DNA of 63,157 nucleotides, the filler included, from Octopus bimaculoides (Eukaryota), in NCBI RefSeq assembly GCF_001194135.2. It is 6 parts of 6 records of this genome, joined end to end, with 100 filler letters (N's around TTAATTAATTAA, not from the genome) between each part and the next. Parts side by side here need not be neighbours in the genome. Positions count along the whole stretch, not along the records: positions 23,611 to 32,948 come from NC_068994.1; positions 33,049 to 49,837 come from NC_068984.1; positions 49,938 to 58,999 come from NC_069009.1; positions 59,100 to 60,973 come from NW_026402642.1; positions 61,074 to 63,157 come from NC_068981.1; 1 more part is not named here. One strand, given 5' to 3'. A program made the translations under genes and the position numbers. Shown here piece after piece: positions 32,772 through 61,790 of this stretch; position 1 is the stretch's first letter; each line of letters opens with the position of its first letter. A model generated the notes under the pieces. That model saw only the letters and a program-made list of their open reading frames with translations, had not been told where the DNA came from and did not search any database.

Positions 32772-32813
32772 TCTACATTGATAAGGGGAAATATCCCGAA
32801 ACTAGTCTGTAGA
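32772..32813 (+). ncRNA. Minimal hammerhead motif with a U3/A8 core
   Basis: TCTACA-TTGATAA-GGGG(AAATA)TCCC-GAAA-CTAG-TC-TGTAGA. Stem I is 6 bp, the palindrome is ACTAGT, and the cleavage triplet is GUC. Confidence 0.65.
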
Positions 32814-33048
32814 TGCCAGACCAGCAAGGGGAAGCGGCGGACCTCCCCTGTTCAAAGGCTATAATGGAGACAGGTTCGTGTGTCACGTAGCTAGCTAGAG
32901 GCGATGGCCTCTTGGAGCTAATGAACGGCAGCATTCGTCCTATTCTTTNNNNNNNNNNNNNNNNNNNNNNNNNNNNNNNNNNNNNNNNNNNNTTAATTAA
33001 TTAANNNNNNNNNNNNNNNNNNNNNNNNNNNNNNNNNNNNNNNNNNNN

Positions 33049-33081
<33 letters not shown>

Positions 33082-33303
33082 AATATATATATATATAAAA
33101 ATGTATGTATATATATGTATATATACATATATGCGTATACACACACGCACACACAAATATATGTGCGCAGGTGCGCATTGCTTGTGTTTATATTCTAATG
33201 TATGCATATGTAGCTTATATATCCTCATATCGATATGCGGAGCAGATCTCTGCGTCTGTGTGTGTCGTTGTGCATATGCTTGTATGCGAATGTTCGAACA
33301 TCG

Positions 33304-33350
<47 letters not shown>

Positions 33351-33758
33351 TGCATCTGCACTAATGTTCGCTGCTGTATTCGTATCATTTCCGTGTAATT
33401 GATGAATATGTAAAGACGGACAGCGTTTTGCTTGAGCCAGCGTCGAATCTATGGAAGCCTGAAGGCATTTTATTCACGACCGGCCCTCGCCAGCCGTGAT
33501 CACTGCAGCTCTCGAAACAATGTTAAAAGTAGGCTTGTATTCATATTTACCTACTTAGCTCTCGGTGCAAACATCATGTATGTTTGTGGTAAACACACCC
33601 TAAGACACACACGCGCGTATGTGGACATATATGCTTGTCTATGTATACAGATATACACACTAGAAATCCGTGCATATGTACATATGTACATATGTACATA
33701 TGTGACTGTGCGTGTATGTATGTATGTATGTGGGTGTGACTGCTTAAGTATGTATATT

Positions 33759-33823
<65 letters not shown>

Positions 33824-34689
33824 NNNNNNNNNNNNNNNNNNNNNNNNNNNNNNNNNNNNNNNNNNNNNNNNNNNNNNNNNNNNNNNNNNNNNNNNNNNNN
33901 NNNNNNNNNNNNNNNNNNNNNNNNNNNNNNNNNNNNNNNNNNNNNNNNNNNNNNNNNNNNNNNNNNNNNNNNNNNNNNNNNNNNNNNNNNNNNNNNNNNN
34001 NNNNNNNNNNNNNNNNNNNNNNNNNNNNNNNNNNNNNNNNNNNNNNNNNNNNNNNNNNNNNNNNNNNNNNNNNNNNNNNNNNNNNNNNNNNNNNNNNNNN
34101 NNNNNNNNNNNNNNNNNNNNNNNNNNNNNNNNNNNNNNNNNNNNNNNNNNNNNNNNNNNNNNNNNNNNNNNNNNNNNNNNNNNNNNNNNNNNNNNNNNNN
34201 NNNNNNNNNNNNNNNNNNNNNNNNNNNNNNNNNNNNNNNNNNNNNNNNNNNNNNNNNNNNNNNNNNNNNNNNNNNNNNNNNNNNNNNNNNNNNNNNNNNN
34301 NNNNNNNNNNNNNNNNNNNNNNNNNNNNNNNNNNNNNNNNNNNNNNNNNNNNNNNNNNNNNNNNNNNNNNNNNNNNNNNNNNNNNNNNNNNNNNNNNNNN
34401 NNNNNNNNNNNNNNNNNNNNNNNNNNNNNNNNNNNNNNNNNNNNNNNNNNNNNNNNNNNNNNNNNNNNNNNNNNNNNNNNNNNNNNTATATATATATATA
34501 TATATATACATACACACATACATACATACATACGTACATACATACACACATGCACACATACATACATACATACATACATACATACATGCATACATATGTA
34601 TATGTGTAATGTTTATATTCCTGCATGTATATTTCGCATAATACAAACAAGACACTCACACATGCTCTGATACACACAGCCACACACTG

Positions 34690-34750
<61 letters not shown>

Positions 34751-35361
34751 TAATAGCATTAAGAAAGCGGCAGATGATGGCTATAAGTCATGCTGTGCAT
34801 AAGTAAAACGGACAGTAATTCGCCGTATTTGCCGTATGTGGCATGAACCGACGTCAAAGATGGTGGTCAGTAAAAACTGCATATTACTGGCAGACACTCT
34901 AACTTTTCACGCCTCGTTCCCGAACTTTCTTCATGATAAATCCATCCTAGAAAATCTACTGACCGCTGGTCATAAAACACAATCAAAAGAAAGCAAGTTT
35001 TAGTGAAGAAATAAATAAATAAATATGTAAATGAATATGCGCTTGACTTAAAATGTTTTTCCTCCATTCTATCATCTTCCAGCGACATACAATTGAATTA
35101 TGTTGTACCAGCTTCGCCAGCAACAAACCTCTCTCCCCCACCGCGAACCCGCGACCCTCTTTTACCCCACTTCTTCTTCGTCTTCCAACGAATTAGCTGG
35201 ATACGAGTAAGCGAATCCGCTTCTCCTCAACCCCACCTCATCTCTAGATTATCTACTAAAACGATTTAGGACGAGAATTTTATTACAAAAATGCCTAGAT
35301 ATCGTTGGAGTCAGAATATTGATGAGCGTCATCCATTTATACAGGATTATCGCTGTTGTTG

Positions 35362-35413
<52 letters not shown>

Positions 35414-58608: not shown

Positions 58609-58649
<41 letters not shown>

Positions 58650-58800
58650 AGGAAAAAAATCCATCGTTTTTACTATTGTTATTACTGCTAATATTACTAT
58701 TACTATTATTATTACCATTATTATTATTAATATTATTGTTGTTGTTATTGTTATTATTATTGTTACTATTATTATTATTATTATTATTGTTATTCACTGT
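57730..58800. repeat. Compound trinucleotide microsatellite field of about 1 kb (TAT/TAG/TTG/CTA, poly-A)
   Basis: Direct reading. Confidence 0.9.
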
Positions 58801-58918
58801 TTTCCACGAAATTCTGTCTCATCCGCTGTAAGCGTGTGTTTGAATGCATGTGTATGGGCGCGTATGCATATACACATGTATGTGTGTATGTATCTCCCTT
58901 TCATTTGCATGTCATGCA

Positions 58919-58989
<71 letters not shown>

Positions 58990-59461
58990 TATATACATAN
59001 NNNNNNNNNNNNNNNNNNNNNNNNNNNNNNNNNNNNNNNNNNNTTAATTAATTAANNNNNNNNNNNNNNNNNNNNNNNNNNNNNNNNNNNNNNNNNNNNA
59101 TATATATATATATACACATACAAGCAAACCACATGTTACAGATTTTCATGAATGCAAGACTTGTGTCATGCAGGGAGAACTTGTGTGTTTCTTGCTCTCT
59201 ATCCTGTACCAAAACTCCCCCCCCCCCAATATTCTGCTTGTTCCAAGTAGCACAAGACTCCTTCTCTATTCGCAGGACACGTGGTAAGAATGAAAGAGTA
59301 AAGGTTCCCGCGTCAAGTCTTATTCAACGAGCTCACTTCAGGGATAAAAATACTATCGTCGTATCAACACTATATCCCCATCAGTTTCATCTCTGATCGT
59401 CATCAGGTGTCCTATTCCTGGATGTGTACACAGGGTCAGATTGGATTAGAACTCGTCATCT

Positions 59462-59682
59462 TTGCTTTACTCTTTTACTCTTTTACTTGTTTCAGTCACT
59501 TAACTGCGGCCATGCTGGAGCACCGCCTTTAGTCGAGCAAATCGACCCCAGGACTTACTCTATCGGTCTCCTTTGCCGAACCGCAAAGTTATGGAGACGT
59601 AAACATACCAGCATCGGTTGTCAAGCGATGTTAGGGATACAAACAGACACACAAACATATACACACAAACATATACACACAC

Positions 59683-59766
<84 letters not shown>

Positions 59767-60265
59767 AAGGGCATTACTATACAAGAATGCCTCACGCTAT
59801 GAGGGACTCTAAGGTCAGACTACCATAAAAAAACACATTTTTACCGAACGTGAGGAAATGCAACTCTCAAAGTCAAGCCCTTAAAAACAGACTGAATTAT
59901 AGATCATGATTTCGTAGTTATTGTAGTATTATACAACCTCTACTCGTCAGTATAATATGGTCAAGAAAAATAGCAGTAAACAGAGAATCAACATACCAAA
60001 CGAACACCGTGTATCCAATATAGTACATAGAAGACTGTTCATCGCTATTTGCCTATGTAAGTGGCGGGAATATATACATATATAGATATATATATACATA
60101 TATACGATGGGCTTCTTTCAGTTTCCGTCTACCAAATCCACTCACAAGGCTTTGGTCGGCCTGAGGCTATAGTAGAAGACACTTGCCCAAGGTGCCACGC
60201 AGTGGGACTGAACCCAGAGCCATGTGGTTGGTAAGCAAGCTACTTACCACACAGCCATTCCTCCG
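59462..60265 (-). mobile_element. SINE family 1 split by an insert of about 300 bp (59766-60065)
   Basis: Tail and body at 59462-59765, head at 60066-60265. The insert carries the hammerhead at 59896-59956. Confidence 0.85.
59896..59956 (-). ncRNA. Minimal type I hammerhead ribozyme motif, canonical core
   Basis: Minus strand: ATTATA-CTGACGA-GTAG(AG)GTTGTA(TAATAC)TACAAT(AA)CTAC-GAAA-TCATGA-TC-TATAAT. Stem I is 6 bp, stem II is 4+6 bp, stem III is the palindrome TCATGA, and the cleavage triplet is AUC. Confidence 0.85.
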
Positions 60266-61214
60266 CCATTATATATTCACAATATTTACATCTACCCAAT
60301 ACATTCCAATCACTTCGACCTATAGTCATTAGGTCCCTTATTCTTGGATGTGTACACGGTACCAGACTGGATTAGAACCAGCTATCTTTATATAGTATAT
60401 TTACAATATTTACATCTACCTTACATGTCAATCAGTTTGATCTAAAATATGGTAAACACCACAAAGTATCGAGTGCGACATTCTTACACTTGCACCCATC
60501 CACCACACTGGTCGATATCTTTAATCAATTAACCCCAGAAAGATTTTAAAACCCTGCAACAGGGTTTGAACTCGAAAAGCTATGTATCAAACCAAATAAC
60601 GTGAGGTGTTCTCTACGACCCTTTAACAGACGCTGCAAGACATTCTACTTGCGACCATCCTGTTTTATGCCTTTGGCATAGTGTACCCCGGATTACATTA
60701 CCCAAAGTATCCATTTCTAATACGTTATGATGCAGTTTGCGGTTTGAGGGAGATTTAGCTACCATTTCCTAAATGGTAAACAAGATCGTAAAGACAGTTG
60801 GTTCCTCTGTTTGAGTGTCTTAGCGTTTCTGTCAGTGAGGGCGAACGTTTGAGTAGGTATGTAGTTTTGTTGCTATGAGGCTGTTTGTGTGTTTGTGCGT
60901 ATTTCTCTGTGTGCATCGGTGGGCATGTATGTGGGTATATATATATATATGTATTATGTGTGTGTGTGTATATNNNNNNNNNNNNNNNNNNNNNNNNNNN
61001 NNNNNNNNNNNNNNNNNTTAATTAATTAANNNNNNNNNNNNNNNNNNNNNNNNNNNNNNNNNNNNNNNNNNNNATACACGTATTTGTGTGTGTGTATTTG
61101 TGTGTGTGTGTGTATATGTGTGCGTGCGTGCGTGTGTGTGTGTGTGTGTGTACGAGTGAGAGGACAAACAAAAGAAAGAGGAACTCAACACATTTTGTAG
61201 GAGTTACATATATT

Positions 61215-61790
61215 ATTATTTAAAACAGCTTAATGTTTCGTAAGCTACAGAAACCTGGCGCCTCGGGATCAGCTATCCGAATCTTAGTTCGACAGTGAGG
61301 ACCTTGGAAATCCAAGATGCAACAGAATGTGATTATGCCTAAACTACACAACGTTGTCGCTAAAACAATATACAATATCTTCCGAGAAAAGACTGAGCTG
61401 GAATAAATATAGAGAATTCTCCAGTTATTGAATGCATACGCAAACATCAACGCAAGGAATATTGTAGAACATTCACCCCAAAACTTCTTCCAAGTGCAGA
61501 CATATCGGGCCGGATATTCTTGTTTGGGACACCTTCGTTTTGGGATCACCACTACTTTGTTATCTCCCCTTCTTCCTAGCTCTCTTGCGTGACCTCTCAG
61601 TCCAGCATTGGCCATGATACATCACTAAACCTTTTTCTATTTTCTCTCCCTGTTTATTTCTGTGTTCCTTTCTGTCGAAGAGCGTAGGCTCGAAACGTAA
61701 AAGACTTTCTCACTTCCCAAGCGTTAAACTAATACATCTGTTTGTTGTTTACACATCCGTCTTCGTCTTTTTTTTTTTTGTAAATTCTCA
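61215..61790 (+). mobile_element. Penelope-like element 3' end (GIY-YIG remnant plus terminal repeat)
   Basis: Frameshifted GNPRC..C and ..EY..TFTPKL peptides, a pyrimidine-rich 3' region, then a hammerhead-like motif. Confidence 0.55.
61668..61703 (+). ncRNA. Minimal hammerhead-like motif (U6 variant, extra A) in a Penelope-like 3' repeat
   Basis: CTTT-CTGTCGA-A-GAGC(GTAG)GCTC-GAAA-CG-TA-AAAG, with an ACGT palindrome. It lies just downstream of a GIY-YIG-like remnant. Confidence 0.5.

Follow-up and report, generated by a model that had tools for sequence, protein, structure and literature searches.

Minimal hammerhead ribozymes of eight unrelated repeats in an Octopus bimaculoides window, probably left by truncated Penelope-like elements

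How does one stretch of octopus DNA come to carry hammerhead ribozyme motifs that belong to several unrelated short repeats? The question is raised by 63,157 nucleotides (nt), filler included, of Octopus bimaculoides (assembly GCF_001194135.2), which consist of six parts joined end to end and are referred to here as the window. A sequence-only reading had proposed that about nine hammerheads lie within 30 kb of it, and that they belong to non-coding, retrozyme-like derivatives of Penelope-like elements (PLEs) whose diversity in octopus might be undescribed. Parsing of the window delimited eight insertions, which between them hold ten minimal hammerheads of type I and belong to eight unrelated repeats. 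The motifs are most probably the 3' ends of different PLEs that were left as short, 5'-truncated insertions.

The motifs originally folded by hand are indeed present (Table 1). An intact core is found at five of the ten positions, namely 32778(+) in the U3-A8 form, 46002(+), 49785(-), 55545(+) and 59950(-), and two more combine good stems with a single core change, U4C at 39242(+) and A6U at 61672(+). The three others are broken: 38960(-), in the 38912(-) arm of a head-to-head pair, and both arms of the 43344 pair, the left arm with U4C plus G8A and the right arm with U4C plus A15.1G and a broken stem I, these arms being the two positions with two core defects. Stems I and II each reach at least 4 base pairs (bp) in type I topology at seven positions, the 38912 arm and both 43344 arms being the exceptions. 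Stem III is fully self-complementary at six positions (at one of them via a G-U pair), has a 1-nt centre at two and contains two mismatches at two. The count of about nine motifs stands in so far as ten positions can be parsed in eight insertions; three of these are broken, and the additional site at 27190(-) is a half-site only.

Table 1. Coordinates of the hammerhead-bearing insertions and their remnants in the window.
Feature	Position	Strand	Details
Minimal type I hammerhead	32772..32813	+	Motif 32778-32807; UUGAUAA (U3-A8) core
Head-to-head pair, left inverted arm	38836..38962	-	Hammerhead with U4C and 2-bp stem I
Same pair, right arm	39238..39333	+	Hammerhead 39238-39285 (core span 39242-39281)
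Decayed copy of the 39238 family (27190 site)	27187..27210	-	3' half only; first core strand not recognisable
Head-to-head inverted pair (43344 pair)	43279..43505	.	Arms ~85% alike
Intact-core hammerhead	45996..46046	+	Motif 46002-46040; GUA at 46040
Intact-core hammerhead	49701..49794	-	Motif 49785-49709; GUA at 49709
Second, shorter remnant of the 49702 family	22257..22284	+	Cleavage triplet, stem I 3' strand and tail; 26 of 28 bases
Intact-core hammerhead	55539..55583	+	Motif 55545-55578; CUC at 55578
Complete 304-nt insertion without open reading frame (ORF)	59767..60070	-	Hammerhead 59896-59956
5'-truncated copy of a very high-copy family	61530..61791	+	Hammerhead 61668-61703; cut site 61699

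The anatomy differs from site to site. The motif at 32778(+) folds with 6 bp in stem I, 4 bp in stem II and the 6-nt palindrome ACTAGT as stem III, and its cleavage is predicted after GUC at 32807. The 39238(+) hammerhead combines U4C with a 7-bp stem II, the stem III ACAGCTGT and GUA at 39281, followed by a 48-nt tail and then (TA)17; the decayed copy at 27190(-) matches this family at 21 of 24 bases (0 of 1000 shuffles). Each arm of the 43344 pair holds its broken U4C hammerhead with a stem III of 4 bp around a 1-nt centre, (TA)13 closes the right arm, and the left arm is 65 nt longer (43279-43343). In the 46002(+) motif stem I has 6 bp, stem II 5 bp and stem III is a 12-nt near-palindrome, and the 45996 insertion to which it belongs starts directly 3' of a repeat resembling a short interspersed nuclear element (SINE). 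The 49785(-) motif shows a bulged stem I, a stem II region of 58 nt and the stem III ACATATGT, with a tail adjoining a fragment of a long interspersed nuclear element (LINE), while that at 55545(+) has a 6-bp stem II and a non-palindromic stem III of 2 bp with an AA loop. The 59896 motif (59950-59902(-)) presents a 6-bp stem I, the stem III ATCATGAT, AUC at 59902 and a 135-nt tail; because this 304-nt piece interrupts a SINE-like repeat inside its inner (TA)n tract, it can be recognised as a whole insertion without an ORF. Finally, the 61668 hammerhead (61672-61699(+)) has the A6U core, 4 bp in each of stems I and II and ACGT as stem III, and the copy carrying it sits in a LINE fragment and ends at (TA)n.

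The families are not copies of one repeat, as had been claimed from the outset. When motifs are compared together with their flanks, local scores between families range from 14 to 32, and the two pairs reach 83 and 197 internally; the one exception is a between-family score of 54, which comes from two sequences that both contain a (TA)n run. Eight insertions per 55,290 called bases correspond to ~145 per Mb. The positions on which the proposed clustering within 30 kb was based hold, and their concentration is weak (range test, P 0.017; 0.056 after adding the two remnants).

The motifs exceed chance expectation, as judged with shuffles that preserve dinucleotides in 300-nt blocks (n = 854 for our own descriptor, n = 1272 for a published-type descriptor). 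An intact-core relaxed descriptor allowing one defect per stem gave five matches against a shuffle mean of 0.24 and a maximum of 3, none of the 854 shuffles reaching five, so the density lies above that of shuffled sequence. For the strict descriptor the count was two matches against 0.02, and for the loosest it was 10 against 2.87, a number reached by one of 854 shuffles. The descriptor of PMC4209133 Fig. S7 as printed finds none of the window motifs, because it restricts stem III to 4 nt, a length that most stems III of the window exceed. Once U3-A8 and longer stems III are admitted it gives three matches against 0.035 (0 of 1272 shuffles reach three), and admitting C4, U6 and an extended loop II as well raises this to six against 0.12. 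The relaxed levels were chosen after the sites had been seen. The Rfam check suggested for these motifs recovered no hammerhead, either among the best 150 of 242 rows or in two focused scans, and the Rfam microRNA matches were rejected as microsatellites. ViennaRNA folds favoured dimers over monomers by 4-12 kcal/mol, a calculation made with no control and not counted as evidence.

Several descriptor matches were discarded. The match at 19011(-) lies inside an RTE-like ORF, and that at 25176(-), one of three near-published matches, lies inside a transposase-like remnant and was rejected as chance; 3090(-), 13601(+), 30685(+) and 22585(-) have weak stems. Candidates at 30640(+) and 32413(-) are weak matches to the 61668 family, equalled in 9 and 52 of 1000 shuffles, and the hammerhead-like pieces in the surrounding segments 30630-30660 (+) and 32300-32520 (-) are weak, agreeing with that family over 11 and 13 bases.

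The insertion context gives most motifs a polarity towards (TA)n. Six of the eight insertions have a (TA)5 run no more than 250 nt downstream in ribozyme sense, versus a rate of 0.144 at random positions (P about 5e-4, for a threshold picked after looking); one of these six runs lies across an assembly gap and another at the head of a SINE piece. Upstream, such a run accompanies one of six single insertions. Two insertions are head-to-head inverted pairs with their ribozymes facing outward (38836-39333 and 43279-43505), and transcripts across them are predicted to fold into long hairpins, not ribozymes, at -95 and -164 kcal/mol, energies attained by 0 of 200 shuffles for the one and 0 of 100 for the other. 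As a side observation, modelled hairpin transcripts of 43344-43505 and 38836-39333 would be likely substrates of A-to-I editing.

These features recall the minimal hammerheads reported in PMC4209133. Many families per genome were found there, mostly as solo motifs thought to be truncated PLEs, with opposite-strand pairs separated by 100-700 bp; cleavage was absent in monomers and low in dimers, and a U3-A8 core was described. The likeness extends to type I topology, a short stem I, an extra base after A9, a palindromic stem III and the U3-A8 variant, and the S. mansoni(3) motif of Fig. S3 carries the same UUGAUAA core as the 32772 site. The window likewise shows many unrelated families, mostly in solo copies, and opposite-strand pairs. 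On the other hand, the 56 motifs of Fig. S3 include no cephalopod and neither U6 nor C4, and most window stems III exceed the 4-nt form described there. The PLE link and the palindromic stem III with its dimer design, both part of the sequence-only reading, are supported.

In PMC8557442, 5' truncation, an inverted partner and a tail on one end are given as hallmarks of PLEs, and they are found here in the truncation at 61530, the two inverted pairs and the longer left arm at 43279-43343, whose 65-nt extension is likely a PLE tail. Files S1 and S2 of that work indicate that Hydra-clade PLEs prefer (TA)n and carry a hammerhead ~100-200 nt from the 3' end, with a stem III of ~4 bp; a (TA)n target together with a ribozyme near the 3' end is seen in six of the eight insertions, and a ~4-bp stem III with a centre of 1-2 nt is a further likeness. 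Across stem I, stem III and the second core strand, Hydra-2_Ajap and the left arm of the 43344 pair are identical over 20 consecutive bases. A gapped motif drawn from the tail of Hydra-2_Amil has a single match in the window, located in the left-arm extension (1 of 100 shuffles). Such similarity suggests that at least one family, that of the 43344 pair, is likely a Hydra-clade PLE end. The core is CUGANGA in each of the 34 rows of File S2, whereas C4 is found in the 43344 and 39238 pairs, and the window holds no PLE ORF by which to place the clade.

Published PLE biology suggests how such stubs may have formed. In the source element, two ribozymes of one tandem transcript would pair via the palindromic stem III and be cut after the NUH triplet. 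The element's GIY-YIG endonuclease would nick AT-rich DNA, at (TA)n, whereupon reverse transcription would begin ~40-150 nt 3' of the ribozyme and in most cases end early, leaving a short stub beside which an inverted truncated copy might sometimes be placed. In PMC11167929, AT-rich DNA is nicked and an internal start of reverse transcription sets the tail; the anole PLE inserts in vitro without ribozyme cleavage, and its ribozyme needs the protein. A link to coding elements, the insertion steps and cleavage are what we infer by analogy. The window stubs would be mostly inactive in place because they are solo or on opposite strands. As U4C is common to both arms of both pairs, it was likely present in the source RNA of the 39238 and 43344 pairs.

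The 61668 family was followed into read data by mapping on 61400-61790, using contig sets of DNA from two organisms, A and B, and two standard RNA sequencing (RNA-seq) runs under the same species label, of each of which about 6 in 100 were read. From the two species 19,203 and 22,730 contig records were obtained, and the summed depth, which is not a copy number, is ~6 million over the ribozyme versus 119-242 at 61470-61525, being ~tenfold lower already 120 nt upstream of the ribozyme. The family is very high-copy in two species, a rough bracket being thousands to about 10^5 copies. Since 346 and 574 RNA reads extend beyond 61530 into a CA-rich sequence that the window lacks, the window copy is 5'-truncated, and ordinary truncated PLE ends can explain the overall picture because this truncation is directly visible.

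Among 40 of 167 variant rows, changes in the 36-nt motif of this family occur at three sites: N7, where C, T and G are found; the opening base of loop II; and H17, where A to T reaches 35 in 100 in X2 and 3 in 100 in X14. The consensus leaves each of these sites free, an outcome with a probability of about 0.005 on the assumption of 7 free sites among 36, and the 87-nt tail has 13 variable sites in the same rows. Position 6 (61675) is not among these variants, T-to-A changes of any kind are confined to 1 and 2 places in the two DNA sets, and the loose-end consensus (259 and 182 reads) has T at position 6 as well; from these observations we infer that U6 is the majority state, with the apparent core CUGUNGA, a minority of A6 being possible among the other rows. 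An alternative register with the core shifted by 3 nt, which reads UUGAAGA in the commonest variant, was rejected on inspection because stems I and II lose their pairing beside the core. The 61668-family pattern matched neither metagenome nor viral contigs (0 matches in both).

RNA records on the family number 3,724 of 12.9 million and 3,603 of 12.0 million, with equal strands, and 94-95 in 100 of the reads continue into unlike sequence, a pattern that fits passive read-through. The suggested look for cleavage ends and circles brought up none in the reads consulted for this family: no pile-up of starts or ends was listed in the two standard runs, which are a weak test of cleavage, and no RNA back-joint was present among the 15 joints listed of 39, from a library type that can miss small circles. 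According to PMC11167929, no pile-up of RNA cleavage ends was found for the anole PLE either.

Several findings weigh against an origin as truncated PLE ends. The 45996 and 49702 insertions are without (TA)n within 250 nt downstream, the Hydra-1_Obim motif is absent from the window, and five window motifs, from five families, have no match in the PMC8557442 consensus files. In the window none of the eight families is joined to a coding element, and a Pfam search of 300 of 331 filtered open frames (583 frames in all) detected neither a PLE reverse transcriptase (RT) nor a GIY-YIG endonuclease, with a motif scan equally blank; such a lack is expected in the window because the copies are truncated. 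The reads consulted concern one of the eight families, and the 40 of 167 rows contain no stem variant of it, which amounts to conservation without covariation.

Other explanations account for parts of the same evidence. Most families might be dedicated short non-autonomous elements that lost their ORF, kept a PLE 3' end and were mobilised in trans, as is suggested by the lack of an ORF adjoining any of the eight insertions, by the 59896 insertion being whole at 304 nt, by the great abundance of the 61668 family, and by known PLE derivatives of that type (MRC1 in PMC8557442; bioRxiv 10.64898/2026.07.22.740005). However, heavy 5' truncation by itself yields the same picture, the copy at 61668 does not reach the length of its family, whose depth drops towards the 5' side, and no fixed 5' end was seen, so that this origin is judged unlikely, if the most serious competitor to truncated PLE ends. 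Much less probable still are non-LTR retrozymes, that is, ribozyme-cut head-to-tail repeats of 150-450 nt spread as circular RNA; PMC7229834 and bioRxiv 10.64898/2026.07.22.740005 describe them as units in tandem with abundant expression in circular form. Animal retrozymes resemble the window repeats in being short, non-coding, linked to PLEs and equipped with type I hammerheads, solo monomers of retrozyme families exist (bioRxiv 10.64898/2026.07.22.740005), and RNA reads do cover the 61668 family. Their head-to-tail arrays and circular RNA are nevertheless not seen in the window and in the RNA of that one family: none of 128 tandem-repeat rows overlaps a motif, no motif has a same-strand neighbouring copy, the paired copies lie on opposite strands, the two RNA runs show no pile-up and the listed joints no back-joint, and the reads mostly run into unlike sequence. 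On these grounds the retrozyme-like part of the sequence-only reading is not supported.

Chance folding in AT-rich repetitive DNA is a negligible prospect. Post hoc tuning of the relaxed descriptors, the two false matches at 19011(-) and 25176(-) and the empty Rfam scans speak for it, but no shuffle reached the intact-core count (854) or the near-published count (1272), the 43344 pair shares its 20-base identity with a published PLE ribozyme, and the main 61668-motif variants sit on free positions, by which this explanation is already largely refuted. Retrozymes and chance both fit poorly, and truncated 3' ends of different PLEs remain the preferred explanation.

Understood as truncated PLE ends, the window motifs are further members of a known PLE hammerhead class, and their density and non-standard cores may be the new part. 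The suggestion that they are undescribed in octopus was half borne out: the PMC8557442 supplement already contains Hydra-1_Obim of O. bimaculoides, with a hammerhead and (TA)n preference, whereas no catalogue of octopus hammerheads was found in the literature. For O. vulgaris, 31 recently active Penelope-like families are recorded in PMC13282606, the available text of which leaves ribozymes unmentioned, and so many active families in an octopus would be enough to supply the window diversity. In giant squid 235 Rfam hammerheads are reported (PMC6962438), and the word 'ribozyme' is absent from PMC8967140. Natural A6C (phage Bcep176) and U4C (viroid) cores, altered at the same positions as in the window motifs, have low but real activity (PMC3088659, PMC7151607); the change here is A6U instead of A6C, in a very high-copy animal repeat whose activity is putative. 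A literature search for an A6U hammerhead turned up two papers, both on other RNAs. Lunse et al., in RNA Biol, reportedly treat PLE hammerhead variants and may already cover U6 or C4 cores.

If the ordinary explanation holds, eight families, which Rfam and the published descriptor miss in this genome, are added to the known class. A more far-reaching proposal, for which the odds are clearly below even and which we regard as tentative, is that this genome has one of the densest hammerhead loads known, with several successful Penelope-type families carrying fixed non-standard cores. Were the window typical, its eight insertions per 55 kb would scale to some 10^5 across the genome. A6U would be fixed in a family that numbers at least thousands of copies and is shared by two species, and U4C in two other families; the ribozymes would be deliberately slow or protein-dependent, missed by standard descriptors and kept by selection in non-coding elements. 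Fixation of A6U or U4C in source elements would bear on whether PLE hammerheads need to cleave, and a high-copy family with a weakened core and a conserved fold would make that requirement directly testable.

The remainder of the window is rich in other repeats. The Pfam matches comprised two sub-threshold RVT_1 pieces (LINE-type on translation), a mariner HTH and a zinc-finger array. Broken LINE ORF pieces, with RVT_1 present, lie at 18700-19620 (-), 49047-49660 (+) and 61230-61530 (+), and the hammerhead stubs at 49702 and 61668 adjoin the latter two. The first of these pieces we take to be RTE-like and the other two R4/Dong-like; a homologue search with a LINE piece returned mostly unnamed RTs. 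A ~400-nt SINE-like repeat with an inner microsatellite has more than ten whole or partial copies, including 7124-7500, 17950-18316, 20677-21092 and 56366-56762. The SINE split by the 59896 insertion is flanked by two copies that resemble each other (0 of 1000 shuffles), at 59396-59463 and 60322-60389 (-); both contain a core-like heptamer and a run of GAA, and they perhaps represent another decayed hammerhead family.

Head-to-head inverted repeats of one further family, with a 9-nt tandem unit and no ribozyme, occur at 7635-7730 and 22290-22428; their geometry is that of the hammerhead pairs, and they are possibly tails of a PLE family that ended before the ribozyme. Endonuclease-less PLEs combine telomere-type repeats with a hammerhead. 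About ten TTAGGG telomere-type units lie at 50065-50123, ~280 nt upstream of the 49702 ribozyme across an assembly gap, with the C-rich strand in the ribozyme sense, a link to the ribozyme being conjectural. A tandem array of ~4 copies of a 107-nt unit at 50605-51079 was searched for a hammerhead core, and none was found in it.

The gaps at 23511-23610, 32949-33048, 49838-49937, 59000-59099 and 60974-61073 each consist of 44 N, 12 bases and 44 N; the 12-base filler is identical in the two gaps read, and the gaps are likely an assembly artefact. The mariner HTH_48 domain lies at 13773-14141 (-), and a second transposase remnant, Tc1/mariner-like by eye, at ~24700-25200 (-). The C2H2 zinc-finger array (Pfam zf-C2H2) occupies a 418-amino-acid frame at 3568-4821 (+) and runs on to ~5000, and its homologues are generic zinc fingers with 38-55% identity among the best 120 of 4683 matches.

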